Shown piece after piece: positions 3,635 to 30,035 of a stretch of DNA of 64,000 bases. The position numbers were made by a program, and so were the translations under genes. Positions within the stretch are counted from its first letter, which is position 1, and each line of letters starts with the position of its first letter. The stretch lies in NCBI GenBank assembly GCA_944332005.1, contig CALVJD010000002.1, positions 3,836-67,835 on the forward strand. The letters are read 5' to 3'. This DNA comes from an uncultured Bacilli bacterium. GTDB taxonomy: Bacteria; Bacillota_I; Bacilli_A; RF39; UBA660. A model generated the notes under the pieces. It was not told where the DNA came from. It did no database searches and saw only the letters and a program-made list of their open reading frames with translations.

Positions 3635-3646
3635 GAGTGATCATTC

Positions 3647-6013: not shown

Positions 6014-6017
6014 TTGT

Positions 6018-6917
6018 ATGGAGTTATTTATTATTTTAGTTGTATTGGCTGCCGTTTTAATCATTCCTAATATTAAAGTCGTACCACAAGCCAAAGCATA
6101 TGTAATTGAACGAATTGGTTCTTATTATGGTACCTGGTCAAACGGGTTACATTTTAAAATTCCGTTCGTCGATCGTATTTCTAATCGTGTCAGTTTAAAG
6201 GAAATTGTAAAGGATTTTGATCCACAACCAGTGATTACCAAAGATAATGTTACGATGCAGATTGACACTGTAGTTTATTTTCAAATTACGGATGCAAAAC
6301 TATATACTTATGGTGTTGAAGATCCTATCCGCGCCATTGAAAATTTAACAGCGACTACGCTTCGTAATTTGATTGGTGATTTGGAGCTCGATCAAACGTT
6401 AACATCTAGAGATATTATCAATTCTAAAATGCGTGCTATTTTAGATGAAGCAACTGACCCATGGGGTATTAAAGTGAATCGTGTTGAAGTAAAAAATATT
6501 ATTCCTCCTCGTGATATTCAAGAGGCGATGGAAAAACAAATGCGTGCAGAACGTGAACGTCGCGAAAAAATTTTACAAGCAGAAGGAGAGAAAAAATCTA
6601 GTATCTTGATTGCTGAAGGAGAAAAAGAAAGTGCTATCTTGCGTGCAGAAGCGAAACGTGAAAGTCAAATTCGGATTGCCGAAGGCGAAGCAGAAGCTAT
6701 TTTAAAACTAAAAGAAGCAGAAGCACAGGGAATTAAATTGTTAAAAGAGGCAAAGGCTGATCAGGCTGTTTTAACATTAAAAAGTTTTGATGCTCTTAGA
6801 GATCTTGCAAATGGAGAAGCGACCAAAATTATTGTTCCATCTGATTTACAGAATATGGCTACTTTAGGTGTAACTTTAAAAGAAATGTTTCAAGAACATA
6901 ATAAGAAGGGATCATAG
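6018..6917 (+). CDS. SPFH/Band 7 (stomatin-like) protein
   Basis: N-terminal TM helix, an SPFH core and a C-terminal Ala/Glu-rich coiled coil. It forms the classic NfeD-SPFH operon. Confidence 0.85.
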   Translation: MELFIILVVLAAVLIIPNIKVVPQAKAYVIERIGSYYGTWSNGLHFKIPFVDRISNRVSLKEIVKDFDPQPVITKDNVTMQIDTVVYFQITDAKLYTYGVEDPIRAIENLTATTLRNLIGDLELDQTLTSRDIINSKMRAILDEATDPWGIKVNRVEVKNIIPPRDIQEAMEKQMRAERERREKILQAEGEKKSSILIAEGEKESAILRAEAKRESQIRIAEGEAEAILKLKEAEAQGIKLLKEAKADQAVLTLKSFDALRDLANGEATKIIVPSDLQNMATLGVTLKEMFQEHNKKGS

Positions 6918-7694
6918 ATGAATCGTTTATTACAGAGCGTTTGGAATGTTATAAGAGTAATCATTTGGCCTGTTTTACTGGGAATTGGTCAATTTCTAAT
7001 TGCTTTTATTTTGACTTATGCCTATTTAACGATTCATCAGATATCGGATGTTAGTGATGTTGTAGTGCAAAAAGAACTGAATCAGTTTGTTGCTGATTAT
7101 ACGTGGATTGTCTTTTTGTGGAACATGTTATTAATTTTCCTTTTTTCTTTTTTTTATAAAAAGTCGATCTCACGTAAGAAACAAAGAGGGAATATAAAAG
7201 AGTTTTTTTTGATCGCTATGATCGGAATAGGATTAGCACTTACGAGTGATATCGTGTTACAATTTTTGTTTCCAGTAACGGTTTCAAACGATATTCATTA
7301 TCATTTATGGATGCAAATTTTAACGATCGGTATTACTGGTCCTATTTTGGAAGAATTGGTTTTTCGAGGCATTATGTTTGAAGAATTAAAGAAACAATTT
7401 TCTGGTTTTTGGCCAGCATTGATCGTTACTTTGATTTTTGCTTTCTGTCATCAAGGTATTAGTCAAATCATTTATGCCTTGATTATGGGAACATTATTTA
7501 TATGGATTTATATGCGAACTAGTAATTTAAAATTATCGATGTTTGCTCATATCAGTGTGAATATTAGTACGTTATGTTTAGCGTCTTTCTCGTTTTCATC
7601 GGGAACGTTCTTAGCCATTCTTTTATTAATTTTTCTAGTTTTGTTTGGAATTAGTTTTTATTTCTTTGTCGAAGATAGTCAAAAAATAGAGTGA
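6918..7694 (+). CDS. CPBP-family intramembrane metalloprotease (CAAX protease-like)
   Basis: Motifs EELVFRG, FAFCHQG and HISVN inside a polytopic membrane protein. Confidence 0.8.
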   Translation: MNRLLQSVWNVIRVIIWPVLLGIGQFLIAFILTYAYLTIHQISDVSDVVVQKELNQFVADYTWIVFLWNMLLIFLFSFFYKKSISRKKQRGNIKEFFLIAMIGIGLALTSDIVLQFLFPVTVSNDIHYHLWMQILTIGITGPILEELVFRGIMFEELKKQFSGFWPALIVTLIFAFCHQGISQIIYALIMGTLFIWIYMRTSNLKLSMFAHISVNISTLCLASFSFSSGTFLAILLLIFLVLFGISFYFFVEDSQKIE

Positions 7695-7717
7695 ATTTTT
7701 TATTTCACTCTATTTTT
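7688..7717 (+). terminator. rho-independent terminator
   Basis: Hairpin agagtgaa...ttcactct followed by a T-run. Confidence 0.65.
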
Positions 7718-7763
7718 CCTGTAAAAACATAGAAAAATGAGGTATAATGTTAATGGTGATAAG

Positions 7764-8507
7764 ATGATAAAAAAAATCAATGATGTGAATATCAATTATA
7801 TCACATATGGAAATGAAAGAGGAGAAGATGTTGTTTTCTTACATGGTTGGGGTCAAAATATTCAAATGATGCGTCCACTAGGGGATTTGCTTGCTCGTGA
7901 TTATCATATTACTATTCTAGATTTACCTGGATTTGGAGAAAGTGATGAGCCAAAATATGCTTGGACTGTTTATGAATATGCAGAGTGTGTAAAACAATTA
8001 TTATCTAGTTTAGGAATTCGTAAACCCATCTTAGTAGGGCATTCTTTTGGAGGTAAAATTAGTTTACTTTATGCGAGTATGTATGATACGAATAAGTTGG
8101 TTTTACTTGCACCTACCTATAAAAAAGAAGTAACGAAATTATCCTTCAAAACAAAAGTGTTAAAATCATTGAAAAAAGTACCTGTTTTAAATCAGTTAGA
8201 AGGTTTTGCAAAAAAACATATTGGTTCGACTGACTATCGGAATGCTTCTCCTATTATGAGAGAGATTTTGACACTTCATGTCAATACTGACATCAGTGAA
8301 GAGTGCAAGAAAATCATGTGCCCTTCTTTAATTATTTGGGGTACGAATGATGAGGCGGTTCCTTACGTGCGTGCTCATCAATTAGAAGATTTAATTCGTA
8401 ATGCAGGTGTCGTTACTTATGAAGGATGTACACACTATGCTTATTTAGAACGTTTGCATCAAACGGTAAATGTTTTGTATAGTTTTTTTGGTAGCAAAGG
8501 AGAATAG
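7764..8507 (+). CDS. alpha/beta hydrolase
   Basis: HGWGQN and the nucleophile elbow GHSFGG. The start could instead be 7737, which has no RBS; 7764 follows ggtga. Confidence 0.75.
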   Translation: MIKKINDVNINYITYGNERGEDVVFLHGWGQNIQMMRPLGDLLARDYHITILDLPGFGESDEPKYAWTVYEYAECVKQLLSSLGIRKPILVGHSFGGKISLLYASMYDTNKLVLLAPTYKKEVTKLSFKTKVLKSLKKVPVLNQLEGFAKKHIGSTDYRNASPIMREILTLHVNTDISEECKKIMCPSLIIWGTNDEAVPYVRAHQLEDLIRNAGVVTYEGCTHYAYLERLHQTVNVLYSFFGSKGE

Positions 8508-8509
8508 TC

Positions 8510-10105
8510 ATGAGAATTTATTTTCTATTATCATTAATTCCATTGTTGATTTATTTTATTTTAAAAAGTAAAAAAGCATTACATATGTTGCAACAAAACT
8601 GGTATAACGAAGATGAACGCTTTTTTAAATGGATTATACAGAATCGCTACCGTGTGTTTGTCGATAATGATATGTTGTTTGTCGTAGCAGCATGTCTTGC
8701 CTTGGTTGTAAATTCTAATCTGGCTATGATTTTATTTGATTTTTTCTATATGGTAGTCACTTATCTTTACTTTACGAGAATGCGTAAAGAACAGGTAAAA
8801 AAACCACTTGTGTTTACAAAGCGTGTTATGCGTCTTTGTATTACGATTGTTCTTTTATACTTAATAGCTATTTTACCAATGATGATTTGGTTTGATGAAA
8901 ATTTGATTGGTTACTATTACTTTATTTTGGGTGCATTAATCTATTTTCATTATTTTGTTGTTATGTTGGCAGCATTCATCAATGTTCCAATCGAAAAAGG
9001 TGTTTTCTATTATTATAAACATCAAGCGTCTCGTAAACTTGCTAGTTTAAATCGTATGAAAGTGATTGGAATTACGGGGAGTTATGGGAAAACGAGTAGT
9101 AAGAATATTTTGAATGATATTTTGAATGTCAAATATATTGCTTTTGCGACTCCGAAGAATTTCAATACGACGTATGGATTAATTAATACAGTCAATAATT
9201 ATCTTGATAAATTTAATGATTATTTTATTGCTGAAATGGGTGCATTTAAACGTGGAGAAATCAAAGAATTGTGTGATTTTGTAAAACCTACTTATGGAAT
9301 TTTAACGACGATAGGAACTGCTCATTTGGAAAGTTTTGGTAGTCGTGAAAATATTCAAAAAGGGAAATTTGAATTGATCGAATCATTGCCAAGTGATGGT
9401 TGCGGTATTTTAAATGCTGATGATCCTTATCAACGTTCTTACGAGTTAAAGAATGATTGTAAGATTTTATGGATCGGTATCGAAAATCATGATGTTGATT
9501 TGTATGCAACTAATATTAAACTTTCTCATCAAGGTACTTCTTTTGATTGTGTTTTTAAAGGTGATAAAACGAAGTATCATTTTGAAACAAGGTTATTAGG
9601 GCGTCACAATATTTATAATATTTTGTCCTCTATTTGTTTAGGAAAGTATTTAGGCATTAGTATTCCAGAATTGCAACTAGCAGTAAAGCGTGTAAATCCT
9701 GTAGAACATCGTTTAGAATTAAAGAAATATGGGCAAATTAATATTATTGATGATGCTTATAATTCTAATCCAGTTGGTTCTAAAATGGCAGTTGAAGTAC
9801 TAGGAATGATGCCTGGAAAACGAATCATTGTAACGCCTGGTATGATCGAACTTGGAATTGAACAATATAAACTTAATAATGAATTTGGTCATGTGATTGC
9901 CGGTCATGCCGATATTGTGATTTTAATTGGAAAGGATCAAACAAAACCAATTTATGACGGTTTGAAAGAAGAAAAATTTAAAGAGAAAAATATTTATGTT
10001 TTGAATGATGTAAAAGAGGCTTTCCCTCTTGTAACAAAATTAAGTGAAGGTCATGAGACCTATGTATTACTAGAAAACGATTTACCTGATATATTTAACG
10101 AATAG
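8510..10105 (+). CDS. murF: Mur ligase family protein, MurF-like (UDP-MurNAc-tripeptide--D-Ala-D-Ala ligase) with an N-terminal polytopic membrane extension
   Basis: P-loop GITGSYGKTS and Mur ligase central and C-terminal domains. The first ~180 aa are hydrophobic TM helices instead of the canonical MurF N-domain. The gene sits next to ddl. Confidence 0.65.
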   Translation: MRIYFLLSLIPLLIYFILKSKKALHMLQQNWYNEDERFFKWIIQNRYRVFVDNDMLFVVAACLALVVNSNLAMILFDFFYMVVTYLYFTRMRKEQVKKPLVFTKRVMRLCITIVLLYLIAILPMMIWFDENLIGYYYFILGALIYFHYFVVMLAAFINVPIEKGVFYYYKHQASRKLASLNRMKVIGITGSYGKTSSKNILNDILNVKYIAFATPKNFNTTYGLINTVNNYLDKFNDYFIAEMGAFKRGEIKELCDFVKPTYGILTTIGTAHLESFGSRENIQKGKFELIESLPSDGCGILNADDPYQRSYELKNDCKILWIGIENHDVDLYATNIKLSHQGTSFDCVFKGDKTKYHFETRLLGRHNIYNILSSICLGKYLGISIPELQLAVKRVNPVEHRLELKKYGQINIIDDAYNSNPVGSKMAVEVLGMMPGKRIIVTPGMIELGIEQYKLNNEFGHVIAGHADIVILIGKDQTKPIYDGLKEEKFKEKNIYVLNDVKEAFPLVTKLSEGHETYVLLENDLPDIFNE

Positions 10106-10117
10106 GAGTGAAGTAAG

Positions 10118-11302
10118 ATGAAAATAAAAGTAGGAGTGATTTTTGGTGGGCCAACAGTCGAACATGAAGTAAGTATTATCTCAGCTGTACAAGCTATGAA
10201 TCATTTAGATAAAGAAAAATATGATATTATACCAATTTATATTACAAAGGATAGACAATGGTATACTGGAAAAATGCTTATGGATATCGAGGTTTATAAG
10301 GATCTTGAATTAGTGAAACGTTATGCAAAAAAGGTGACTTTTTATAATAAAAATGGAGAATTTGTTTTACAGACGACTGGTTTATTTAAACGCGTATTAG
10401 ATACGATCGATGTTGCATTTCCCATCGTTCATGGTAATAATGCCGAAGATGGAACTTTGGCTGGATATTTGAAAACAATTGGAGTTCCTACGGTTGGAAG
10501 TGATGTTTTAGGGTCTGCATTAGGACAAGATAAAATCGTAATGAAACAAGTATTTGAGGCTACTGGACTTCCTGTTGTCGATTATACATGGTTTTATGAT
10601 TGTGAATATTTAGCACATAAAGATGAAATCTTTCGTGATGTTAAAAAGATGGGATATCCAGTTATCGTAAAACCAGCTTCTTTAGGAAGTAGTGTAGGTA
10701 TCGAATTTGTAAAAGATGAATTGGATTTAGATAAAGCAGTACGCGAAGCTATTCGTTATGATGAAAAAGTGATTATTGAAAAAGCAGTCGATCATTTAGT
10801 CGAAGTAAATTGTAGTGTACTTGGTAATTACGAATATCAACAAACGGGAGCAATCGAAGAAGTAATGGGGAGCGAAGAGTTCTTGACTTACCGAGATAAA
10901 TACTTAGGAGGCAGTAAAGGCGGTAAAAGCAAAGGAATGGCTTCTACTAATCGTATTGTTCCGGCTCGCATCAGTAATGAGTTGACAGAAAAAGTACAAG
11001 AATTAGCGAAGTTAGCTTTCAAGGCTCTCAATTTAAGTGGTGTTTGCCGTATTGATTTCTTGATTGATAAAAAGAATGAAAAAGTCTATATCAATGAGCC
11101 AAATACTATTCCAGGAAGTTTATCTTTCTATTTATGGGAACCAGTTGGAAAACCATATCGAGAATTGTTGGATGATATGATCTCTTTAGCAATTAAAGAA
11201 TATAAAAATCGAAATAAAAAAGTGATTTCTTTCGAAACAAATATCCTTAGTAATTTTAGCGGAACGAAAGGAATAAAAGGTGTGAAAGGCAAATTAAAAT
11301 AA
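10118..11302 (+). CDS. ddl: D-alanine--D-alanine ligase
   Basis: 394 aa with an ATP-grasp fold and the typical Ddl N- and C-terminal motifs. Confidence 0.9.
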   Translation: MKIKVGVIFGGPTVEHEVSIISAVQAMNHLDKEKYDIIPIYITKDRQWYTGKMLMDIEVYKDLELVKRYAKKVTFYNKNGEFVLQTTGLFKRVLDTIDVAFPIVHGNNAEDGTLAGYLKTIGVPTVGSDVLGSALGQDKIVMKQVFEATGLPVVDYTWFYDCEYLAHKDEIFRDVKKMGYPVIVKPASLGSSVGIEFVKDELDLDKAVREAIRYDEKVIIEKAVDHLVEVNCSVLGNYEYQQTGAIEEVMGSEEFLTYRDKYLGGSKGGKSKGMASTNRIVPARISNELTEKVQELAKLAFKALNLSGVCRIDFLIDKKNEKVYINEPNTIPGSLSFYLWEPVGKPYRELLDDMISLAIKEYKNRNKKVISFETNILSNFSGTKGIKGVKGKLK

Positions 11303-11322
11303 CAGAGTTCTGTTATTTTTTT
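11301..11322 (+). terminator. rho-independent terminator
   Basis: aacaga..tctgtt followed by a T-run. Confidence 0.6.
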
Positions 11323-11344
11323 CTTAATCAAAAGGGAATCTTTT

Positions 11345-12820
11345 TTATAATTTTATATCGTAGACACTAGGACCTTCAATCACATTACCATCAATATCGA
11401 AACGGCTTCCATGACAAGGACAATCCCAAGTTTTATCCACTTCGTTGAAAATGAGACTACATTTTAAATGAGGACATAGATTTCGAACTTTGTGTTCTCT
11501 CCCATTCTCATCCGTATAAATGCCAATCTTTTTACCATCTTCATGTGTAATTTTTACATTGTTAGGATAGTATGGTTTGTTGGTATGAAATTTTGTTTTT
11601 AAAATTGATTTACTTGTTTGATAAACATCTAGAAAAAAGCTCGTGATTTTCTTTTTATTGAATGATCGATTAGGGTCAAATATTTTTTCGTATTCATTTT
11701 CTTTCCCTAATAGAATATCACTTAATATTTTGCCAGCAATGATACCGTTTGTCATTCCCCATTTATTGAATCCGGTAGCTATCAATAAATGATCATTCTT
11801 TTTTTCCATTCTTCCAATAAAAGGAAGTCCATCATTGGTCATAACATCGTGAGTAGACCATTGATAAAGAGGCGTCACTTGTAAATAATCTTCCATTTGT
11901 TTTTTTAGTTTTTCGTATTCTTTCTTAGCATCCATTGCTTGATCTGTTTTATGACTTTCGCCAGCATAGATAATATAAGCGTTTTTATCTTGATGATAGC
12001 GAATTGATTCAGTTGGACTTCCTTCTGTAATGGCACTAAAATTATGTACGTTATCGATGGAAGCAGCCCCTACATAATCTTTTTCGATGTGTGTACGTAG
12101 AGGAATCCAACCAGGATCTAGAAAGAAAGGATAGTGTGTTGTCACAACGACTTTAGTTGCCACAATATCACCTCGGTTCGTATGCACAATATAATGTTTA
12201 TCGTGTTTTTCTAATGTTAGTGCGCGAACATTTTCATAAACATCGATGCCCTTTTTTTCAATGATTGTTAATAATCCTCTTATATATTTAACGGGATGAA
12301 AAATAGCTGTATCATCCACGCGAATACCATATTTAATTGAGTAGGGAATAGGTAGACTGTCCACAACTTGATATGGTAATTTGATTTTATCGAAAAAATC
12401 TTGTTCTTTTTGAAAGGCTTTGATTTTCTTTTCGTCGTTGGTAAACGTGTAAGAAGAGACAATTTCGAAGTTACAGTCAATGTTATTTCGAATCGTATTT
12501 TTACGAGCAATTTGAATGGCTTCTTTTTGGCTTTCTAAATACTTCAAGGCCGTATAAAAATCAAATGTTTGGGTTAATTTATGGTAGGGAAGTTCCTGTA
12601 GATAGGTTAGCTTTCCCGTCGAATTGGAAGAGACACCAAAACCAATGATATCGCTGTCAATAACGGTTACCTTTTGTTTACTATCTTTTAAATGATAAGC
12701 AGTTTCAATGCCTGCTATTCCACCACCAATAATTAAAATATCTGTTTGATAAGGAGTATGGATTACTTTTTTATTTTTTTCTACTTTGATTCCTGCTTGC
12801 CATAATGTTTCTTTTTTCAT
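11345..12820 (-). CDS. FAD-dependent oxidoreductase fused to a C-terminal Rieske [2Fe-2S] domain
   Basis: N-terminal GGGIAG dinucleotide-binding motif. C-terminal CPHLKC...CPCHGSRF Rieske motif. Confidence 0.8.
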   Translation of the reverse strand: MKKETLWQAGIKVEKNKKVIHTPYQTDILIIGGGIAGIETAYHLKDSKQKVTVIDSDIIGFGVSSNSTGKLTYLQELPYHKLTQTFDFYTALKYLESQKEAIQIARKNTIRNNIDCNFEIVSSYTFTNDEKKIKAFQKEQDFFDKIKLPYQVVDSLPIPYSIKYGIRVDDTAIFHPVKYIRGLLTIIEKKGIDVYENVRALTLEKHDKHYIVHTNRGDIVATKVVVTTHYPFFLDPGWIPLRTHIEKDYVGAASIDNVHNFSAITEGSPTESIRYHQDKNAYIIYAGESHKTDQAMDAKKEYEKLKKQMEDYLQVTPLYQWSTHDVMTNDGLPFIGRMEKKNDHLLIATGFNKWGMTNGIIAGKILSDILLGKENEYEKIFDPNRSFNKKKITSFFLDVYQTSKSILKTKFHTNKPYYPNNVKITHEDGKKIGIYTDENGREHKVRNLCPHLKCSLIFNEVDKTWDCPCHGSRFDIDGNVIEGPSVYDIKL

Positions 12821-13075: not shown

Positions 13076-13309
13076 TTACGTATTACATTTTACCTTATTT
13101 TATATAAAAACGCAATCCTTTTTTCCAAATTTATGGGAATTTAATAGAAGAGATCGTTTTTTTGAATCTCATGAAATAAATAGCAAATAAGAATGATAAA
13201 GAATAAATTTTCGAAATGAGAATAAACTATAGTAGACTAGGAATATTCGATTAAAAACAAGAAAATAAGTTAGAAATGGGAAAAAATAAAAAAATTATGG
13301 GAAAAACTC

Positions 13310-22476: not shown

Positions 22477-24954
22477 ATGAAACAAGAAATTGTGACGATT
22501 ACAGGAATGACCTGTTCAGCATGCTCGTCTAGAATCGAAAAAACGGTTTCGAAATTAAAGGGAGTAAAAAAAGTAGAAGTCAATCTTTTAACAAATAAAA
22601 TGATTCTTTCTTATGATGAAAATAAAATATCGATGGATCAGGTAACCAATGCGATTGAAAAAATTGGTTATGGGGTAAGTAGTGATCATTCTAAAAAAAG
22701 TGAAAAAGCGAAAGATCCTATATTATCACGTTTACTCGTTTCCATCTTATTTACGATTCCTTTATTTTATTTAGCTATGGGTCATATGTTCCATTTTCCA
22801 CTTCCTAGTATGTTTAAGGGTATGGAAAATGCGCTTACGTTGGCCTTTACAGAGTTTTTGTTATTACTTCCTGTATTGTTTGTCAATCGTAATTTTTATA
22901 AAAATGGTTTGAAATCGCTCATCCATTTTGCGCCTAATATGGATACGTTAATTGCTCTGGGATCAGGAGCTGCAACGCTGTATGGTATTTATGCGATTTA
23001 TAAGATCGGATATGGTCTTGGACATCAAGACTTCCACATGGTGGAACATTTTATGATGGATCTTTATTTTGAATCTGCTGCTATGATATTAACTTTAATA
23101 ACACTAGGAAAATATTTAGAAAGTAGAGCGAAAGGAAAAACGAGTGAAGCGATTACGAAATTGATGGATCTTGCCCCTAAAATGGCACATGTCAAAAGAA
23201 GAGGAAAAGAAATGACGATTCCGATCGAAGAGGTAGTAGTAGGGGATCGTTTGATCATTCGTGCTGGTGAAGCGATACCAACTGATGGGATTGTTCTCTC
23301 TGGATTGGGCTATATTGATGAAGCTATGATTACGGGAGAAAGTATTCCTGTTTCCAAAAAAGAAAAAGATGAAGTAATTGGATCGACGATTATGAAATCA
23401 GGATATCTAGAAGTAAAGGCAACTAAGATCGGAAATGATACGACGTTATCCAAAATCATTCAATTAGTAGAAGATGCCACTACATCGAAAGCACCGATTG
23501 CAAGATTAGCGGATCGTATCAGCGGTATTTTTGTACCAGTTGTTATTTTGATTGCGATATTAGCTTTTGTCATCTGGTTGTTGCTTGGCCAAAGTTTGGA
23601 ATTCGCCTTATCGATTGCCATTTCGGTATTGGTAATTTCTTGTCCTTGTGCTTTGGGACTGGCAACACCAACCGCTATTATGGTCGGAACAGGAAAAGGT
23701 GCATCGAACGGAATTCTGATTAAATCCGCACCTGCGTTAGAACATGCTGGTAAAGTTGATACGGTTGTATTAGATAAAACCGGAACCATCACAGAAGGAA
23801 AACCGATCGTTGTTGATATTTATTCGCCTCGCCTAAAAGAAAACCGTCTTTTAGAAATTGCCGCATCGATCGAATCGTTATCGGAACATCCGCTTTCTAA
23901 TGCAATTGTCGACGCTTCCAAAGAAGTGAAGGCAGTTATTCATAAAGTCACGGATTTTAAACAATTACCAGGTGAAGGAATATCGGGTAATATTGGAAAA
24001 GAAACTTACTATATTGGAAACGACCGCCTTTTACAAAAGATGAAGGGAAAAGATTTGGATTTAGAAGCGCTCTATGAAAAAGCAGTTCAAAAAGGACAAA
24101 TTCCCCTTTATGTGATGGATGATAAGAAAGTATTGGGATTAATCATCGTTGCTGATACGATCAAAAAGGATAGTAAAGAAGCTATTTCGGAATTAAAAGC
24201 GTTAGGGCTTCATGTTATTATGCTGACCGGAGATCACCACAAAACAGCGGAAGCGATTCAGAAAGAATTGGATATTCCGGAAGTGATATCTGAAGTAAGG
24301 CCAGATGAAAAAGCAGCTGTGATCGATCGTTTAGAAAAACAAGGAAAACATGTTTTGATGGTAGGTGATGGTATCAACGATGCTCCAGCACTTGCTCGTA
24401 GTGATGTTGGTGTCGCAATTGGAGTAGGAACTGATATTGCGATCGAATCAGCCGATATCGTTCTTATGAAGAATAACTTGATGGATGTTGTTACAACCGT
24501 TCTTTTGAGCCGTGCTGTTATGAAAAATATCAAGGAAAATCTGTTTTGGGCATTCTTCTATAATACGATAGGTATTCCTATTGCTGCTGGATTATTCTAT
24601 GGTATTTGGAATTTGAAATTGAACCCGATGATTGGAGCAGCAGCGATGAGTTTAAGCTCGGTATGTGTTGTTACGAATGCTTTACGATTAAAATTTTTTG
24701 AACCAAAAATAAAAAGAAAGAAGGAAATAGGTGTGCAAAAGCGTATTATGATTGAAGGAATGAGTTGTATGCACTGCGTAAATCATGTTAAAGATGCTTT
24801 AGAAAAGGTCGAGGGAGTTGAACATGTGAATGTTGATCTCGATAAAAAAGAAGCAATTGTGACAGTGAATGGTACCCAAGATGAGGCCTTGAGGCAGGCT
24901 GTTCTAGATGCTGGATATCAAGTAAGCAAAATCGAAGAAATAAATCGAATATAA
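22477..24954 (+). CDS. copA: copper-translocating P1B-type ATPase with N- and C-terminal HMA domains
   Basis: Motifs CPC, DKTGT and GDGIND. N-terminal MTCSAC and C-terminal MSCMHC heavy-metal-associated domains. Confidence 0.9.
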   Translation: MKQEIVTITGMTCSACSSRIEKTVSKLKGVKKVEVNLLTNKMILSYDENKISMDQVTNAIEKIGYGVSSDHSKKSEKAKDPILSRLLVSILFTIPLFYLAMGHMFHFPLPSMFKGMENALTLAFTEFLLLLPVLFVNRNFYKNGLKSLIHFAPNMDTLIALGSGAATLYGIYAIYKIGYGLGHQDFHMVEHFMMDLYFESAAMILTLITLGKYLESRAKGKTSEAITKLMDLAPKMAHVKRRGKEMTIPIEEVVVGDRLIIRAGEAIPTDGIVLSGLGYIDEAMITGESIPVSKKEKDEVIGSTIMKSGYLEVKATKIGNDTTLSKIIQLVEDATTSKAPIARLADRISGIFVPVVILIAILAFVIWLLLGQSLEFALSIAISVLVISCPCALGLATPTAIMVGTGKGASNGILIKSAPALEHAGKVDTVVLDKTGTITEGKPIVVDIYSPRLKENRLLEIAASIESLSEHPLSNAIVDASKEVKAVIHKVTDFKQLPGEGISGNIGKETYYIGNDRLLQKMKGKDLDLEALYEKAVQKGQIPLYVMDDKKVLGLIIVADTIKKDSKEAISELKALGLHVIMLTGDHHKTAEAIQKELDIPEVISEVRPDEKAAVIDRLEKQGKHVLMVGDGINDAPALARSDVGVAIGVGTDIAIESADIVLMKNNLMDVVTTVLLSRAVMKNIKENLFWAFFYNTIGIPIAAGLFYGIWNLKLNPMIGAAAMSLSSVCVVTNALRLKFFEPKIKRKKEIGVQKRIMIEGMSCMHCVNHVKDALEKVEGVEHVNVDLDKKEAIVTVNGTQDEALRQAVLDAGYQVSKIEEINRI

Positions 24955-25037: not shown

Positions 25038-25111
25038 TGGAGCAGCTGAGGAGAATCGAACTCCCGTCTCAACCTTGGCAAGGTTGCATTCTACCATTAA
25101 ACCACAGCTGC
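25038..25111 (-). tRNA. tRNA-Gly(GCC)
   Basis: Acceptor gcagctg/cagctgc, anticodon loop ttGCCaa, CCA encoded. Confidence 0.8.
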
Positions 25112-25218: not shown

Positions 25219-26184
25219 TTATAATTTATTGTGTAATTTTAATATTGCAACTAACATATCATCACGATATGCAGCAAGAGAAACATCATCATTTCCGATT
25301 TCTCTTGGACGGTTTTTCATGGCTTCTTCAACACCATCGCGAGCGATTTTGGCAAATTCTGGTGGGAATTCTTTCCAATCAGCCATATCATTTAACCATA
25401 GGGTAATAGAATCATGTAAGTGATTCATAAGTCCATCGACACCACCTTCGCCACCGCCTAATTGAAAGACTAAAGATGGTCCCATAATACCCCAACGAAT
25501 TCCAGGACCGAAGGTAACTGCTTTGTCTGCATCTTCGATTGTACAAACACCACGCATAACAAGTTCACAAACTTCGCGATAAAGTGCCATTTGTAGGCGG
25601 TTGCAAATAAATCCTAGTGCTTCTTTTTGTAGAACAACTGGTTCTTTTCCTACCGAAATATAGAATTCTTTGGCAAGTTGAACATTTTCTTCAGTTGTTT
25701 TTTCTCCTTTTGTAATTTCGATGAGAGGAATTAAATGAGGTGGATTGTAAGGATGTCCACCTATAAAACGTTCTGGATATTTTGCAACTTTTGCAATTTC
25801 GGTAATCAGTAATCCAGAAGTAGAACTTGCAATAATGGCATCTTTATCGGCATATTCTTCAATTTCTTTTACGATTTCATGTTTTACATCATAATGCTCT
25901 GGACCTGATTCTTGTATAAAAAGAGCACCTGTAACTGCTTCTTCCATCGAAGTGGTATAATGAATTCGATTTTCGATTTCTTCTCTTTCTTGTTCTGAGA
26001 TGATATTGTTTTTAATCAATAATTCAAGACTAGTATGAACTCTCATTTTAGCGAGATCTAATGCTTCCTGATTGATATCGTATAAACTAACCTCCAACTT
26101 TTTCAAAGCAAAGCTTACTGCAAAACTATAACCGATGACACCTGATCCAACACAGGCAACTTTTTTAATATCTGATACTTTCAT
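25219..26184 (-). CDS. 3-hydroxyacyl-CoA dehydrogenase family protein (NAD-binding)
   Basis: VACVGSGVIG Rossmann motif and an HBD-like C-terminal domain. The start at 26184 follows the RBS aaggagg. Confidence 0.75.
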   Translation of the reverse strand: MKVSDIKKVACVGSGVIGYSFAVSFALKKLEVSLYDINQEALDLAKMRVHTSLELLIKNNIISEQEREEIENRIHYTTSMEEAVTGALFIQESGPEHYDVKHEIVKEIEEYADKDAIIASSTSGLLITEIAKVAKYPERFIGGHPYNPPHLIPLIEITKGEKTTEENVQLAKEFYISVGKEPVVLQKEALGFICNRLQMALYREVCELVMRGVCTIEDADKAVTFGPGIRWGIMGPSLVFQLGGGEGGVDGLMNHLHDSITLWLNDMADWKEFPPEFAKIARDGVEEAMKNRPREIGNDDVSLAAYRDDMLVAILKLHNKL

Positions 26185-26487
26185 ATATCCTCCTTTATTT
26201 TCCAATTATATTGTACCTCTTTTTCGACATAAAATACTCTTTTTTTTATTTGATTGTCATAAGTTGACATAAAATTGGGATAGGCGTTTAATAGTTAATT
26301 TTCTGTTGGACACTTATTTCAGTTTCATCTAAAAAAGTAGGTACAAATGGAAATATTTTAGTTTATATTATGTTTTTGTAATAAAATGAAGATATATGTT
26401 TCTGATATGTGTTTTTACGACCAATATTATTAATAGTGAGGCATTTTGGTCTACATGAAGGAGATGGATGTTATATGCCAGAAGGTA

Positions 26488-26511
26488 TAAAAAAAGAGAT
26501 TTTGTATCTCT
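26488..26511 (-). terminator. rho-independent terminator of the minus-strand islet operon
   Basis: agagat-acaaa-atctct hairpin followed by T8 on the minus strand. Confidence 0.5.
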
Positions 26512-26634
26512 TGTATATCTAATGGAGCCACAGTCGAGCCTATCTCGAACTTTTTCTCAAAAGAATATTGATAAATATCAAATCTATTAATATTTTACTA
26601 AATTACAATAAAAATATCAATGCTATATATCTGA

Positions 26635-27756
26635 TTATTTAAAATTTTTGAGGTTTAAATATTTATGATAAGTTTTTGCAAAATTATACCTTATTGAATA
26701 AAAAAGCTGATAATGTGGATTAATAGTACTGTTAAAATCAGATTCTTTAATGGATTTATATATATCATTTTCAATTGTTTCGCTATTAACAAAGGTAAAT
26801 ATTTCTTCTAAATTTTTATCAATATAATAGAAACATAGTATAGTTTTTTCTGAATGTTTTACTCGTTCTTCATATCTTTCATTAAAATTAATATTAGTAG
26901 GTAATACATAGCTTTCCCAAACAACAAAAATGCCAATAATATGTTCTCTTTCTATTTGCGTAGATATGGTATTTATTTTTCTATAAAATGTGGCCTTTGA
27001 TTCAGCTAAAAAGGGATTTATTTTAAAAGTTTTATCTTTATAAAATATAAACATAGTAGGCATTATATGTTGTTTTTGTAATTTATAAATAAGAATATGA
27101 CATGAAATGAAATCTTTAAACATATCTTTTAAATTATTACTTTGGAAAAAGTTATTATTTATTGGAACTTTTTCTTCTTTTTTATTTATATTATTATCAT
27201 TAAATCCTAACATTTTTGCTCTAGATTTAGGCTCTAGTAAATTGGTGCTTGGTATATATTTATAATCTCTCTCTAAACATAATTCATATATGCATATTTC
27301 TTTAATTTTTTCAGAAATTTTTAATTCCATATTTTCACATTTAAGACAGTTAGTATTGGTGGATAATTTAAATTGTGTAAGAAAACTATTCATATCGGCA
27401 ACTCCATGTTTTATTAAATCAATAATATTTATTTCTTTACCATTTTCAGTAAATCTAATTATAATAGACAAATATATTTCTGGTGCTTTAAATGTTTTTA
27501 GTTTCTCTTTAATTTCGGTTTCTAATTGTTTTGCATTTTCCCAATTTTCATAAGTATAGTTATGTTTTATAATTTCATTACTATTTCCATAAAAATATAC
27601 ATTCACCATTATTTGCTTATTTAATTTAAAGGGATTTTGATGAATTACTTCAACTCTCTTATCGTTAAGCCATTTTAATTCATCACTGATTAAATATTGA
27701 TCTCTTAATTGCTTATATATTTTCTTATTTTTGGAAGAATCTAATGATTTTTGCAA
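26635..27756 (-). pseudogene. hypothetical protein, very AT-rich, no recognisable domain; apparently the 3' part of a gene split by a frameshift in an A7/T7 tract
   Basis: The 373-aa frame starts only at a TTG with no RBS. The upstream 45-aa ORF fuses in-frame if the T7 run at 27783-27789 gains one T or loses two. Confidence 0.5.
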
Positions 27757-27764
27757 AACAAATG

Positions 27765-27902
27765 TTATATTTCTAAATTCAGAAAAAAACTATCAATGGA
27801 AGAAACTACATCGCAAAATTCTTCTGCTTTTATAAAGTCAGATAAGTTTTTTAAAGCACTATAAAATTTTTGATATGACGTACACATTATACAATTACTC
27901 AT
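27765..27902 (-). CDS. 45-aa Cys-containing ORF, probably the N-terminal part of the frameshifted downstream gene
   Basis: Strong RBS ggaggtatat upstream of the ATG. It ends 8 nt before the TTG of the 373-aa frame. Confidence 0.4.
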   Translation of the reverse strand: MSNCIMCTSYQKFYSALKNLSDFIKAEEFCDVVSSIDSFFLNLEI

Positions 27903-27973
27903 ATATACCTCCTCATTGTTTTCTCAGTATTATAGCATAAAAAAACAAAATTTTCGGTTTTGTTTTTAGAATA

Positions 27974-29071
27974 TTATATATAATTTATTTTTTCAGCTTT
28001 TAAAATAGCATCAATATATTCTATTGTGTAATCACGAATAAATTTCTTTGGAGATAAAACCCAAGAATTTATTTCATTATACAATCTTTCGAATCCGATT
28101 TCTCCATATTGATTATAAAATTCAGAATAATTAATTAGGCCTTCTTTTAAATATTCTCTGTACGCTTCATTTCCCACATACATTCTTTTTGACAATTTAC
28201 TTCCTGACCAATCTAATATTGTTGGAGTATAAATGATACTTGGAACATCATGTATTTTCATTTTTAACAATGGTTCCATATAAACTCGTAAAGGCCACAT
28301 TCCAGACCAATCGCCACCATCAACAATAACATTTAACGAATTATCAATTTTATCTTGTTTTAATAAATATAAAATTTTTACTAAATAACGCAACGGTACA
28401 TTCATATCAAAATTGTCATTACTATTTTTGTCGATGTTTACTTCAAAATTGCCATGTTTTGGACAAAAAGAATTTATAATAATTTTATTGTCTACAGCTT
28501 TAATTTTTGTATTAGAAAGATGTTTTTCTGTTAAGCCACATTTAGGGCATGGGACTCTTAATCTAATTTCGCCATTTTTTGGATCTAAAGTGTATCTTAA
28601 TTCTTTTTCGTTCTGTATTACTTCATAAAGTGCTTCTTTTACTAATGGATTTTTTTGATAATCATAAAAAAATAATACCTCATAATTTATTTTGTCTTTT
28701 TTACTTAATTTGTCTAATAACTCTTTAAAATAGGGGAAAAATTTTTCTTTAATTGTTAATCCATTATTATCTTTAACAATATTTAAATTTTTGTAATACT
28801 TAATTCCATCTATCATAAATTCTTCGCCAGTAACACTTTCTAAAAGCTCAACTTTTATTTTTACTGGAACATTATAATATTTTTTGAAATGTTTAGCTAA
28901 TGCAAAGGCTGAAATAAAATTGGTTAGAGTACCGACATGTGGGTAACTATTAACCTGTGCTGAAAGCCATAAAACAATTTCCTTTTTTCCGTCCATTTTG
29001 TTTTTTATAATTTCTGCTAAATCATCTATTATATAATTCATTCCTGCTAATGGATAATATACATTTTTCAT
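27974..29071 (-). CDS. truncated class I aminoacyl-tRNA-synthetase-like protein (class I LysRS-like catalytic core, no anticodon-binding domain)
   Basis: HIGH-like NSYPHVGT, KMSKS-like GSKLSKR, and a Zn knuckle CPKC..27 aa..CPKH. It is 365 aa, against ~520 aa for class I LysRS. Strong RBS gaggagg. Confidence 0.55.
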   Translation of the reverse strand: MKNVYYPLAGMNYIIDDLAEIIKNKMDGKKEIVLWLSAQVNSYPHVGTLTNFISAFALAKHFKKYYNVPVKIKVELLESVTGEEFMIDGIKYYKNLNIVKDNNGLTIKEKFFPYFKELLDKLSKKDKINYEVLFFYDYQKNPLVKEALYEVIQNEKELRYTLDPKNGEIRLRVPCPKCGLTEKHLSNTKIKAVDNKIIINSFCPKHGNFEVNIDKNSNDNFDMNVPLRYLVKILYLLKQDKIDNSLNVIVDGGDWSGMWPLRVYMEPLLKMKIHDVPSIIYTPTILDWSGSKLSKRMYVGNEAYREYLKEGLINYSEFYNQYGEIGFERLYNEINSWVLSPKKFIRDYTIEYIDAILKAEKINYI

Positions 29072-29649
29072 TTTGACCTCCTCGTTATGTATCCCGCTTT
29101 AATTATATCATATTTCTTATTTTTGGTATATTCAACATCTTTTAACTTAAATTCTTCTGTCATTTCCATTTCCTTACAGGTCATACAAAAATTGTCTTCA
29201 TATAATTTTGAGTGAGAATTGATATATTCTTTATTATATAATTCTTGTTTTTCTAAATACTCATATACTGCTGGAAAATTTTGAATATTCAAATAACATT
29301 GTGGGACATTAAAATGACTATCAATTTCTTTTATTTTATTTATACTTATTGGTTGTTTAAATAATTGTAGAGATTCTATAGGAATAGCAAATTTTTCTCC
29401 ATTTTTAAGGCAATTTTTAATTCTATCATATATAATAGAATCTTTATTATAATCGTCTATTTTTTCAGCTGTATGTATTGGTTTTCCCAATTCCATTATG
29501 CCTACTACTTCTTGTACAGGGGCGCTTAAATAAAGATATGCTGTCGTTGGTTTATCACAAAATCTTTTTCTGTATTCATACATTTTCATGTTATATAATA
29601 TTGGCCTAAAAAATTCAGGTCTAAAACTCAAAAAAATTTTTCTTTTCAT
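29068..29649 (-). CDS. ASCH/PUA-like domain protein
   Basis: N-terminal KIFLSFRPEFFRPILYNMKMYEYRKR pattern is typical of ASCH domains. Its stop overlaps the downstream ATG by 4 nt (ATGA). RBS ggaggt. Confidence 0.5.
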   Translation of the reverse strand: MKRKIFLSFRPEFFRPILYNMKMYEYRKRFCDKPTTAYLYLSAPVQEVVGIMELGKPIHTAEKIDDYNKDSIIYDRIKNCLKNGEKFAIPIESLQLFKQPISINKIKEIDSHFNVPQCYLNIQNFPAVYEYLEKQELYNKEYINSHSKLYEDNFCMTCKEMEMTEEFKLKDVEYTKNKKYDIIKAGYITRRSK

Positions 29650-29696
29650 TTATTTTACCTCCAATCAACAAAAATGCAATTTAAGTTTCTGCTTAA

Positions 29697-29730
29697 ATTA
29701 TAACATATAAATACTAAATTATAAAATTAG
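29697..29730 (-). promoter_or_regulatory. candidate promoter of the islet operon (extended -10 TGtTATAAT on the minus strand)
   Basis: Extended -10 read on the minus strand with a weak -35. It lies about 45 nt upstream of the first gene. Confidence 0.35.
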
Positions 29731-29892
29731 CGTGTGATATATTTTAATGTTATTTAAAAGCAAAATGTTATTTATTTTTTAAACTTTTCTGCATTTCACA
29801 AATAACATCAATTTCTTTTTCAAAGTATCATTAATTGGGTTTTCTTTCTTAATAACATTTACCATTAATAAATCACTCTCACTTTCTTAAAC

Positions 29893-29925
29893 AAAAAAAT
29901 CAAATCCATTTCTGAATTTGATATT
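29893..29925 (-). terminator. rho-independent terminator downstream of tRNA-Gly(TCC)
   Basis: atcaaat-tcagaaatgg-atttgat followed by a T-run on the minus strand. Confidence 0.6.
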
Positions 29926-29961
29926 TATCATAATGCCCGAAAGTTCGAGCAGATTCATCTC

Positions 29962-30035
29962 TGGAGCGGATGATGAGAATCGAACTCACGTAGTCAGCTT
30001 GGAAGGCTGAGGTTCTACCATTAAACTACATCCGC
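29962..30035 (-). tRNA. tRNA-Gly(TCC)
   Basis: Acceptor gcggatg/catccgc, anticodon loop ctTCCaa, CCA encoded. Confidence 0.8.

Follow-up and report, generated by a model that had tools for sequence, protein, structure and literature searches.

An ASCH-fold protein and a class-I aminoacyl-tRNA synthetase-like ligase encoded by a horizontally mobile two-gene module

The islet and its genes

The window analysed here is a stretch of 64,000 nucleotides from an uncultured Bacilli bacterium (contig CALVJD010000002.1). An AT-rich islet at positions 26521-29961 (Table 1) abuts a tRNA-Gly(TCC) gene, whose 3' end faces the islet since the gene is on the minus strand. The gene on the other flank codes for a 3-hydroxyacyl-CoA dehydrogenase (25219-26184/26205, Pfam 3HCDH_N E 5e-51). 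The GC content of positions 26522-29961 is 0.239, compared to a mean of 0.337 (sd 0.014, minimum 0.307) in 1074 same-size intervals elsewhere in the window.

The sequence from 29821 to 26521 is 97.7-98% identical to that of five relatives (L014, L015, L019, L020 and L021), each of which diverges into different DNA directly after '...GGCTCCATT'; this 3.3-kb block at 98% identity is found in at least four distinct flanking contexts. Homology to all relatives ends at GTTCGAGATAGGCTCGACTGTGGCTCCATT, a degenerate repeat that resembles a tRNA 3' end (T-loop-like GTTCGA ... GCTCCA), and L103, an independent contig that covers the flank of the window itself, begins or breaks at 26526. The near-identical block with differing flanks and the break in L103 support the idea that this is an islet horizontally acquired at the 3' end of a tRNA gene. 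The composition, both flanks and the junctions in the relatives all agree with a preliminary description of the window, which placed an AT-rich islet between the dehydrogenase gene and the tRNA. The tRNA-proximal end contains an empty insertion site with the core AAGAAATT (about 29810-29817); in relatives, an element of 5.5 kb is nested at this site, and from the gene content of L014 it encodes a serine recombinase and a Mob_Pre relaxase.

Table 1. Position of the features of the islet in the window
Feature	Position	Strand	Basis or remark
Distal islet boundary GTTCGAGATAGGCTCGACTGTGGCTCCATT	26521..26550	-	Junction alignment
Third gene, frameshifted; intact form 421 aa	26635..27902	-	P0115 homolog of 421 aa, 94% identity
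Homopolymer T7, frameshift site (T8-to-T7)	27783..27789	-	Sequence; comparison with L014, L015, L020, L021
ORF2, 365 aa, class-I aaRS catalytic-core-like ligase	27974..29071	-	
ORF1, 193 aa, ASCH fold of 'c0' type	29068..29649	-	PDB and Foldseek ZmASCH matches, AF2
Promoter-like site TTTATA-17-TATAAT with upstream TG	29697..29725	-	Consensus scan; 48 nt before ORF1
tRNA-proximal islet end	29798..29961	-	92-94% conserved in relatives (blastn map, junction sequences)
tRNA-Gly(TCC)	29962..30035	-	ARAGORN; Rfam tRNA 70.1 bits

The stop codon of the ASCH gene, ORF1, overlaps the start codon of the aminoacyl-tRNA synthetase (aaRS)-like ORF2 (ATGA), as the preliminary description had seen, and an AGGAGG ribosome-binding site lies inside the end of ORF1; translational coupling of the two genes is supported. 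The proposal that the operon has its own extended -10 promoter was not confirmed: a matching site is present, but it is statistically indistinguishable from chance, such matches being no more frequent in the AT-rich DNA of the islet (29) than in shuffled sequence (34.6). The terminator that had been assigned to the operon was not recovered, since the scan passed no minus-strand terminator inside the islet. No riboswitch or T-box giving a clue to the amino acid or the acceptor was detected.

All the open reading frames described earlier are found on the minus strand where they had been placed, but the last two, a 45-aa 'Cys ORF' (27902-27765) and a 373-aa ORF (27756-26635), are not separate genes. 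They are the halves of a single gene broken by a 1-nt deletion, the window having T7 where four relatives have T8. After a gap of 71 nt, the third gene starts from a ribosome-binding site of its own; its family is weakly tagged Phage_lambda_Ea47 (precomputed PF26900). The earlier view that the four ORFs constitute one operon-encoded system, in which the 45-aa Cys peptide and the 373-aa protein would be functional, is consistent with the shared strand, the tight spacing and the fact that all three genes accompany one another in L014, L015 and L019-L021, where the islet is nearly identical. The frameshift argues against it, however, and so does the distribution of the third gene: outside the islet lineage, it is beside the pair in none of the 48 dereplicated loci of the ORF2 family; in distant relatives (69-84% DNA identity), the homology is confined to 29668-27973, which is exactly ORF1 and ORF2; and one homolog (in L016) is found directly behind the HamA/HamB genes of a Hachiman system instead. 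Four functional ORFs are thus very improbable, a view that is largely refuted. From these comparisons, the 421-aa gene is not part of the conserved unit, which consists of ORF1 and ORF2.

The ASCH protein and the ligase

The ASCH fold binds and deacylates N4-acyl-cytidine. ORF1 had been recognised as ASCH/PUA-like from the letters of the window, and this assignment holds: although ORF1 is below the threshold of the Pfam ASCH model, its sequence matches that of ZmASCH in the PDB (E 4e-4), and its AF2 model (pLDDT 94.9) retrieves ZmASCH with Foldseek (E 5e-8, TMt 0.69). It also matches the PADLOC candidate PDC-M11B (E 1e-13) and phrog_3136 (E 1e-15). The motif K22-x-x-E25-x-R27 is invariant in 40/40 sequences. 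In GKER-type ASCH proteins, the Lys and the Glu form the catalytic dyad for the deacylation of tRNA N4-acetylcytidine, and the Lys, Glu and Arg residues of the octapeptide are reported to be essential for N4-acetylcytidine or tRNA deacylation (bioRxiv 10.64898/2026.02.27.708502). ORF1 shares the fold of the ASCH amidohydrolases (E. coli YqfB, T. thermophilus TTHA0113 and Z. mobilis ZmASCH) and retains these residues, so that we regard it as a putative, catalytically competent ASCH protein; it differs from them by a C-terminal helical extension of ~70 aa (about residues 125-185), by missing the Pfam threshold and by its obligate link to a ligase.

ORF2 has a HIGH-type motif (P-H45-V-G47), a KMSKS-type motif (K292-L-S-K295-R), a Cys3-His knuckle (C175, C178, C203 and H206) and no anticodon-binding domain, which is what the preliminary description meant by a truncated class-I aaRS-like enzyme. 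H45, G47, K292, K295 and the four residues of the knuckle are invariant in 55 sequences, down to 30% identity. The family comprises 547 clusters (at 50% identity) among 1.84 billion, 384 of which are at E<=1e-10, and its length is conserved (about 355-370 aa). None of the Pfam, NCBIfam and PADLOC models matches ORF2, which has no name in the source. As proposed, the enzyme is outside the described families that these models represent; its own family, invariant catalytic motifs and conserved length show that it is not a degraded housekeeping synthetase.

It could be argued that ORF2 is a decaying piece of a housekeeping class-I aaRS, with unrelated neighbours, since its only sequence matches to GluRS are weak ones in the region of the KMSKS motif. 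This explanation is refuted by the size of a family whose members are full-length, by the invariant catalytic and metal-binding residues, by the compact and confident AF2 model (pLDDT 92.8) and by the conservation of the ASCH partner. As a matter of fact, the family profile reaches no aaRS of the PDB with an E value better than 0.1, which indicates that ORF2 is not a recent fragment.

Class-I lysyl-tRNA synthetase (PDB 1irx; Pfam tRNA-synt_1f) is only 14% identical to ORF2, which is ~140 residues shorter, lacks the anticodon-binding domain and any Pfam or NCBIfam match, and is ASCH-paired and present on mobile elements. The nearest structural relatives of ORF2 include two small-molecule ligases, MshC and BshC (PDB 3c8z, 4wbd), the cysteine ligases of mycothiol and bacillithiol synthesis; these have other domain additions, belong to housekeeping thiol metabolism, have no ASCH partner and are not mobile.

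Recurrence and contexts of the pair

A search of gene neighbourhoods, which had been suggested as a check, shows that the pairing recurs: an ASCH partner is present in 43 of the 48 dereplicated loci (28 adjacent, 14 within 6 kb and 1 fused), which span Bacilli, Clostridia, Mollicutes, CPR bacteria and archaea. The ligase and the ASCH protein have been fused at least four times independently; besides the one among the 48 loci, fusions are present in P0315, P0376, P0368 and L078. The co-occurrence of ORF1 and ORF2 is tight and ancient.

Mobile elements, plasmids and temperate phages all carry the pair, which takes moron or cargo positions in the phages and mobile elements. It adjoins the integrase in the Streptomyces temperate phage Picard, it is carried by plasmids of Macrococcus and actinomycetes, and serine recombinases are found within 6 kb in 8/48 loci. 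The conserved unit is an unnamed, horizontally mobile two-gene module, which recurs in genomes as different as those of gut Firmicutes, actinophages, CPR bacteria and archaea.

Some relatives are embedded in larger clusters, which contain pyrophosphatases (NUDIX, MazG, HAM1), kinases (dNMP-kinase-like, APH, AAA_28), members of the nucleoside-deoxyribosyltransferase-like, LOG and AlkZ-like N-glycosidase families, SAM methyltransferases and AdoMet_dc. These accessory genes point to a nucleoside, a nucleotide or RNA as the acceptor, and fit the nucleotide- or RNA-directed function suggested earlier.

Possible functions of the module

The explanation that we favour, to which we give a probability of about 0.4, is that ORF2 is an ATP-dependent aminoacyl "writer" and ORF1 the corresponding "eraser", acting on a nucleoside, a nucleotide or an RNA base, and probably forming a conflict or addiction module. 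ORF2, derived from an aaRS, keeps the class-I adenylate-forming site; it would most likely activate an amino acid with ATP and pass it to an acceptor other than a tRNA selected by its anticodon; the acceptor may be a nucleoside, a nucleotide or, within RNA, a base or ribose. The (acylated) nucleoside would also be handled by ORF1, which would reverse the reaction of the ligase or else present the substrate. The minimal two-gene form, that of the islet, mobile elements and temperate phages, would then most likely behave as a toxin and its antidote. A hint of conflict comes from L047, L065 and L073, which have an intact ASCH gene but a disrupted ligase gene. On the contrary, the absence of an ASCH partner of the Pantoea copy and of one archaeal copy, and the existence of c0-type ASCH genes on their own in Firmicute phages, count against a writer and eraser.

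The defence role put forward in the preliminary description is weakly supported at most, by the PDC-M11B match, the moron and cargo positions and the antitoxin label of a related ASCH protein (see below). However, ORF2 itself has no PADLOC counterpart, many CPR and archaeal copies are surrounded by ordinary genes, and among 134 unclassified neighbours screened with PADLOC the signal is modest, genuine defence genes being few and scattered (type IIG RM x2, PDC-S01 x2, PDC-S04 x3) and the remainder mostly ABC-ATPase cross-hits. The clusters with exporters and ATP-grasp enzymes look like metabolite biosynthesis rather than defence.

Two other two-gene systems may be compared with the pair. In lambdoid coliphages, at the rexAB position, a c0-type ASCH gene annotated 'GevA antitoxin' is beside that of a 357-aa 'GevT toxin', these roles being the depositors' annotation (GenBank PV340567.1). 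The two genes overlap and follow cI, in a moron position of the prophage, a layout like that of ORF1 and ORF2, and GevA is a c0-type ASCH protein like ORF1 (local HMM E 6e-26; Pfam ASCH 35 bits). GevT/GevA is probably the PADLOC candidate PDC-M11, assuming that PDC-M11A is GevT. We considered GevT as a homolog of ORF2 and rejected it: the two are unrelated (hhalign probability 0.3%), and GevT is weakly GNAT-like. DarT/DarG, a toxin-antitoxin system in which a base-modifying enzyme is co-encoded with a hydrolase-fold remover on mobile elements, would be analogous to the pair if it is indeed a writer and an eraser; its folds are completely different and it uses ADP-ribosylation, as opposed to the presumed aminoacylation.

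A somewhat doubtful alternative is that the pair is a split RNA-modification enzyme: ORF2 would attach an amino acid to one particular base or ribose of a tRNA or rRNA, and the ASCH protein would be the RNA-recognition subunit that stands in for the missing anticodon-binding domain. The pair would not act as a toxin but would tune translation or protect it, for instance from anticodon nucleases. The model would be Glu-Q-RS (YadB/GluQ, PDB 4a91), a paralog of GluRS that glutamylates queuosine in tRNA-Asp. ORF2 has no detectable sequence membership in that family, and Glu-Q-RS is chromosomal, works alone and is not known to have an ASCH partner. In favour of this alternative, RNA is bound by ASCH/PUA-like folds, and ASCH proteins have tRNA ac4C among their targets; repeated fusions such as those of the ligase and the ASCH protein are usual between subunits that cooperate; CPR and DPANN, with their reduced genomes, have the pair; and a 2H/LigT RNA-repair-type protein adjoins it in L008. 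Against this, the catalytic dyad of the ASCH protein is strictly conserved, although it would be superfluous in a subunit that only binds, the rarity, patchiness and mobility of the family are unlike those of a core modification enzyme, and there is no consistently linked tRNA or RNA gene.

Last, it may be, although this is unlikely, that the module is the core of a small-molecule pathway, in which ORF2 would make an aminoacyl- or peptidyl-nucleoside-type metabolite by ligating a (modified) nucleoside or nucleobase with an amino acid; the ASCH protein would be an amidohydrolase for self-resistance or pro-drug processing, and the two-gene islet a minimal or remnant version. The structural proximity to BshC and MshC agrees with this idea, as do several of the larger clusters. 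Type C clusters combine NUDIX, dNMP-kinase-like, ASCH, two methyltransferases, AlaDH/PNT, AlkZ-like, ligase and AdoMet_dc genes, while type D clusters contain a radical SAM enzyme, a DegT aminotransferase, an APH kinase, a Nuc_deoxyrib_tr-like protein, the ligase, a MazG-like protein, an ABC transporter and the ASCH protein. The Macrococcus plasmid operon has two L-amino-acid-ligase-like ATP-grasp enzymes and an MFS transporter nearby, and that of Pantoea a LOG-family protein, a DMT transporter and HAM1. Most loci nevertheless contain the pair only, without tailoring or export genes; this is the case of the window, of the phage and of the copies in CPR bacteria and archaea. The moron position of a two-gene module in a temperate phage is also unusual for secondary metabolism.

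The small-molecule pathway may also find a parallel in BlsK, from blasticidin S biosynthesis, a [3Fe-4S]- and tRNA-dependent aminoacyltransferase (cited in PMC12710036) whose cluster is reportedly bound by three cysteines. BlsK transfers an aminoacyl group onto a cytosine peptidyl-nucleoside, and its three cluster-binding cysteines may be compared with the three invariant cysteines and one histidine of the ORF2 family. The donor of BlsK is Leu-tRNA, whereas the intact HIGH and KMSKS motifs of ORF2 argue for an ATP-dependent activation.

The islet beside tRNA-Gly(TCC)

The GC content of the window falls to 0.21–0.27 between the 3-hydroxyacyl-CoA dehydrogenase gene and tRNA-Gly(TCC). The segment 26522–29961 has a GC content of 0.239, while the 1074 windows of equal length taken elsewhere in the 64 kb average 0.337 (sd 0.014, minimum 0.307). 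Adjoining a tRNA 3' end and atypical in composition, the block also occurs in other contexts: positions 29821–26521 match five other assemblies at 97.7–98% identity (loci L014, L015, L019, L020 and L021, L019 being Candidatus Coprosoma intestinipullorum). The preliminary description was therefore right to see an AT-rich islet at the 3' end of the tRNA.

In all five copies the homology ends at one common base, after GTTCGAGATAGGCTCGACTGTGGCTCCATT, and the DNA beyond this point is unrelated in four loci that carry the islet block, which amounts to a presence/absence polymorphism. Another, independent contig matches the chromosomal flank of the window at 99.8% identity and starts at 26526, that is, at the islet boundary; a true empty site of the islet was not recovered among the compared loci. 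The distal end of the islet looks like a degenerate tRNA 3' end, whose counterpart in the tRNA is GTTCGATTCTCATCATCCGCTCCA; the two (GTTCGAG...GGCTCCA at the distal end, GTTCGAT...CGCTCCA in the tRNA) are identical in short stretches only, and the repeat search did not report them. The ORFs of the window's islet include no integrase or recombinase. On the other side of the dehydrogenase gene, a second tRNA-Gly (GCC) follows a copper-transporting P-type ATPase gene, so that the dehydrogenase gene is flanked on both sides by tRNA-Gly genes of the same strand.

Coordinates of the features in and around the islet
Feature	Position	Strand	Length
Copper-transporting P-type ATPase gene	22477–24954		
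tRNA-Gly (GCC)	25038–25111		
3-Hydroxyacyl-CoA dehydrogenase gene, end	about 26184–26205		
373-aa ORF (ORF4)	27756–26635	minus	373 aa
45-aa ORF	27902–27765	minus	45 aa
ORF2 (aaRS-like ligase)	29071–27974	minus	365 aa
ORF1 (ASCH-fold protein)	29649–29068	minus	193 aa
tRNA-Gly(TCC)	29962–30035	minus	

The islet relatives also have in common the 160–250 bp beside the tRNA. In four of them (for example L014, 162–5707, and L021, 1742–7252) an extra 5.5 kb, encoding a serine recombinase of 624 aa, a Mob_Pre relaxase and small ORFs, lies between this tRNA-side segment and ORF1. The junctions of this insertion have a short AAGAAATT core in common, and the insertion is precisely missing from the window, whose unoccupied site lies at about 29810–29817. 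Having its own junctions and an unoccupied site in the window, the 5.5-kb block is therefore a separate, nested integrative mobilizable element (IME). The serine recombinase and the relaxase belong to it, and we rejected them as the integrase of the window's islet.

The islet had been described as a four-ORF operon. The protein most similar to the 373-aa ORF, P0115 (94% identity), has 421 aa, and its first 40 residues correspond to the 45-aa Cys ORF; at 27783–27789 the window has a run of seven T, against eight in L014, L015, L020 and L021. A frameshift in this homopolymer has therefore split a single gene into the two ORFs, and phase variation, a sequencing error or decay into a pseudogene may account for it. 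The 45-aa Cys peptide, rejected as a gene, is the N-terminus of this 421-aa gene. Neither ORF has a significant match in Pfam, NCBIfam or PADLOC, and the family of the 421-aa gene is tiny (3 clusters, with a weak precomputed Phage_lambda_Ea47 tag). In relatives at 69–84% DNA identity the homology is limited to 29668–27973, exactly ORF1 and ORF2, and among the other dereplicated loci the 421-aa gene stands beside the pair in no other lineage. The supposed operon thus comes down to three genes, of which only ORF1 and ORF2 form a unit.

The 421-aa gene might itself be a defence-associated gene that is still uncharacterised. At locus L016 (4232–5485) a member of its family lies directly behind HamA/HamB and overlaps the stop codon of hamB, the Hachiman helicase gene; nSTAND and AAA_11/12 genes belong to the same defence island.

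ORF1 and ORF2 are translationally coupled: the TGA of ORF1 and the ATG of ORF2 overlap (ATGA), the ribosome-binding site (AGGAGG) being located within the end of ORF1. Regarding the extended -10 promoter and the terminator that had been proposed, a promoter-like site (TTTATA-17-TG-TATAAT) is present upstream of ORF1, such matches being no more frequent in this AT-rich DNA than in shuffled sequences, and the islet scan scored no minus-strand terminator.

The aaRS-like ligase and its ASCH-fold partner

ORF2 has a Rossmann-type catalytic fold with the HIGH signature that is canonical for class-I aaRS, and its KMSKS loop (K292-L-S-K295-R) aligns with the KLSKR loop of GluRS. Across 55 members of the family, down to 30% identity, H45 and G47 (HIGH-type) as well as K292 and K295, the two lysines of the loop, are invariant, and so are G252, D254, C175, C178, C203 and H206. 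The protein ends shortly after the KMSKS loop and the stem-contact helices, without an anticodon-binding domain; the aaRS that it was aligned with are 440–590 aa long, and only 208–275 residues align. No Pfam (including its aaRS families), NCBIfam or PADLOC model matches ORF2, and the gltX model TIGR00464 reaches 15.7 bits, its cutoff being 290. The sole sequence signals are a whole-length match to phrog_35625, 'tRNA synthetase' (E 3.5e-24), and a marginal similarity to GluRS near the KMSKS loop; a profile built on the 55 sequences reaches no solved aaRS in the PDB (best E 0.1). The view of ORF2 as a truncated class-I aaRS-like enzyme is thus upheld: it shares the fold, HIGH and KMSKS with the canonical enzymes, but differs from them in having neither an anticodon-binding domain nor a match to a curated model.

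The homologs of ORF2 form 114 clusters at 90% identity, and a profile run exhaustively against 1.84 billion representatives collects 547 clusters at E<=1e-3 (384 at E<=1e-10). Judged from these sequences, the family is rare but real. Its size and its invariant catalytic residues are at odds with the idea that ORF2 is a fragment of a degraded housekeeping synthetase; by its sequence relationships, the family is an old, separate branch rather than a decayed synthetase. The ten family members whose source names were looked up are all called 'hypothetical protein'. The N-terminal extensions of the long members contain no Pfam domain, except for one GDSL-lipase fusion, and four proteins of 630–980 aa (P0254, P0260, P0261 and P0293) have two tandem aaRS-like domains preceded by N-terminal regions of 100–240 aa without a Pfam match.

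Several times, paralogs of aaRS that no longer recognize a tRNA anticodon have taken on unusual chemistry; Glu-Q-RS, the cyclodipeptide synthases, MshC and BshC are examples. ORF2 resembles paralogs of the Glu-Q-RS/MshC/BshC kind, but belongs to none of these families. A possible characterised relative is BlsK, an aminoacyl-transfer enzyme of blasticidin S synthesis, which is reported to have a cluster held by three cysteines (cited in PMC12710036).

The ASCH/PUA-like nature that had been assigned to ORF1 is confirmed. Residues 3–119 match the crystal structures of the ASCH protein of Zymomonas mobilis (phmmer, 5y6c, E 4e-4), and the AF2 model (pLDDT 94.9) retrieves the same protein with Foldseek (E 5e-8, TMt 0.69), followed by TTHA0113 (2dp9), EOLA1, TRIP4-ASCH and McrB N-domains; residues 125–185, approximately, form an additional helical extension. 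K22, E25 and R27, which are part of the ASCH octapeptide G-x-K-x-x-E-x-R, are invariant in all 40 partner proteins of the ORF1 type (c0), the Gly position of the octapeptide being Asn in ORF1. The Lys and the Glu of the octapeptide are reported to be needed to remove N4-acetylcytidine from tRNA (2026 preprint, bioRxiv 10.64898/2026.02.27.708502). ORF1 has no match to Pfam ASCH (PF04266) at E<=1, and a close homolog scores 14.2 bits, below the gathering threshold of 21.2, which is passed by the second partner type (c1), by gp29 of phage Picard (42.6 bits) and by GevA, an annotated coliphage antitoxin. ORF1 is an ASCH-fold protein that has the catalytic motif but scores below the Pfam threshold.

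ORF1 also matches phrog_3136 and PDC-M11B (PDLC04425; E 1.3e-13, profile positions 2–123 of 132), a component of a PADLOC candidate system. In PADLOC, neither ORF2 nor ORF4 matches PDC-M11A, and for lack of this A component the locus does not qualify as a PDC-M11 system. The c0-type ASCH genes of Firmicute phages have no recurring partner gene.

Conservation, mobility and gene clusters of the pair

To evaluate the conservation of the pair, ORFs were called and neighbours clustered in 80 loci of named genomes and in one of a viral contig; dereplication of the ligase at 90% identity gave 48 groups. By HMM, the ligase has an ASCH partner as its direct neighbour in 28 loci, at a distance of up to 6 kb in 14 and as a fusion in one, so that the pairing suggested for the islet recurs in 43/48 loci. 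Of the five loci without it, three have a flank shorter than 1.5 kb, and in one the ligase is truncated. The hosts include Bacilli, Clostridia, Thermoactinomycetaceae, Mollicutes, several CPR phyla, Aenigmarchaeota, Woesearchaeota and Methanosarcinales.

Independent ligase-ASCH fusions exist (L078, of 501 aa, P0315, P0376 and P0368), as do fusions to AdoMet_dc (P0101 and P0106) and tandem ligase-ligase proteins. We did not retain as fusions the 'ASCH domain-containing protein' matches of actinomycete plasmids, which are separate, overlapping genes.

The two adjacent, coupled genes are found on mobile DNA of various kinds (islet, IME, plasmids, prophage). In the temperate Streptomyces phages Picard and Mojorita they have the lysis genes on one side and the serine integrase on the other, and they also occur on actinomycete plasmids and on a Macrococcoides plasmid. 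A serine recombinase is encoded within 6 kb in 8/48 loci, and at one locus (L003) a PBP5 gene is split by the element that carries the pair. The co-occurrence at great phylogenetic depth, the operon structure and the fusions show that ORF1 and ORF2 are coupled; the pair is carried on mobile DNA. What the islet contains is a conserved, mobile and unnamed module, in which an aaRS-derived ligase is paired with an ASCH hydrolase.

Gene arrangements around the ligase
Arrangement	Genes	Occurrence
Type A	ASCH (190–216 aa), then ligase	as in the window
Type B	ligase, c0-ASCH, second canonical ASCH	CPR bacteria, archaea, Clostridia
Type C	NUDIX, dNMP-kinase-like, c0-ASCH, methyltransferase, AlaDH/PNT, methyltransferase, AlkZ-like (x2), ligase, AdoMet_dc	gut Bacilli/Clostridia
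Type D	radical SAM, DegT aminotransferase, unknown, APH kinase, 699-aa protein, Nuc_deoxyrib_tr-like, ligase, MazG-like, ABC transporter, c0-ASCH	
Other	two ATP-grasp (L-amino-acid-ligase-like) enzymes, ligase, c0-ASCH; MFS transporter nearby	Macrococcus plasmid
Other	methyltransferase, ligase, LOG-family protein, DMT transporter, HAM1; no ASCH	Pantoea plasmid
Other	AAA_28 or HATPase-like protein, ligase, ASCH	Actinomycetes

The theme of the larger clusters is nucleotide handling, with NTP pyrophosphatases, nucleotide kinases, N-glycosidase families, methyltransferases and sometimes exporters. The type C cluster, of about 8 kb, is conserved (L008 2968–9540, L011 800–8459, L049, L050, L058 and L060); in some cases a second ASCH, a 2H/LigT protein and a serine recombinase come after it. 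It resembles a pathway, so far undescribed, that modifies nucleotides, nucleosides or nucleic acids. The two-gene form (L021) and the type C cluster (L051) coexist in one MAG, BRZ_ID__bin45. The type D cluster (L069, L076 and L083, about 1356–11500), whose 699-aa protein is weakly FemAB/GNAT-like, resembles aminonucleoside or peptidyl-nucleoside antibiotic pathways. Neither the window nor nine related loci contain a T-box or riboswitch that would name a ligand. Downstream of the ligase cluster of a Patescibacteria MAG (L056), two DUF805 RNA motifs (Rfam RF03081, 77–79 bits) at 12312–12379 and 13172–13239 are probably unrelated to the pair.

Possible functions of the pair

ORF2 has an intact class-I adenylate-forming site, and ORF1 is a catalytically equipped ASCH partner. 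ORF2 would activate an amino acid with ATP and move it onto a nucleoside, a nucleotide, or the base or ribose of an RNA, a reaction for which Glu-Q-RS is a precedent; ORF1 would bind the same nucleoside, the acyl product being either hydrolysed or recognised. If the acceptor is an RNA, the two proteins might be the halves of a split RNA-modification enzyme, which we consider rather unlikely.

We favour, with a probability of about 0.4, the idea that the two-gene form found on phages and islets is a writer/eraser conflict module, similar to a toxin and its antidote. Three observations lean that way: in the rexAB position of lambdoid coliphages, a 'GevT toxin' of 357 aa has next to it a c0-type ASCH (E 6e-26) with the annotation 'GevA antitoxin'; ORF1 matches PDC-M11B; and in a few loci the ligase gene is disrupted while the ASCH gene is intact. 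Against this reading, however, GevT is unrelated to ORF2 (it was considered as a homolog and rejected), and the GevT/GevA labels are unverified annotations. Moreover, the census of neighbouring defence genes (PADLOC), which the preliminary description had called for, does give some signal, but a modest one, dominated by cross-matches of ABC ATPases. Several contexts of the pair also look biosynthetic, and the pair could instead be the core of a nucleoside-metabolite pathway, which seems to us quite improbable.

The writer/eraser reading can be developed into a new kind of mobile-element conflict system, a proposal that we regard as doubtful. An aminoacylation effector, the ligase, would load an amino acid on a nucleobase or ribose (for example N4 of cytidine) or on a free nucleotide; the product would be an aminoacyl-nucleotide mimic, and a dedicated ASCH amidohydrolase would be the reversible antidote or eraser, while the larger clusters would extend this core to make exported nucleoside-type toxins.

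In any case, the ligases form a distinct, unnamed branch, without a Pfam or NCBIfam model, whose members nearly always have an ASCH protein linked or fused to them and spread on phages, plasmids and integrative elements, in bacteria and archaea alike; our literature search found no description of an aaRS-like and ASCH pairing, of PDC-M11 or of GevT. Identifying the substrate would give a function to about 550 protein clusters, and a natural cognate 'writer' to the ASCH fold, whose biology of N4-acyl-cytidine erasure is just emerging. The substrate could reveal a new aminoacylation mark of nucleic acids or nucleotides in phage-host conflict or, alternatively, the core with which gut Firmicutes make nucleoside metabolites of a new class. 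The module is compact (two genes, 1.7 kb) and directly clonable.

Last, we note that the GevT/GevA locus, which probably corresponds to PADLOC PDC-M11, occurs in at least eight lambdoid coliphages. In Escherichia phage PhiR47_2 (PV340567.1, 2447–3875) GevT, whose N-terminus is weakly GNAT-like, and the ASCH protein GevA are encoded directly after cI.
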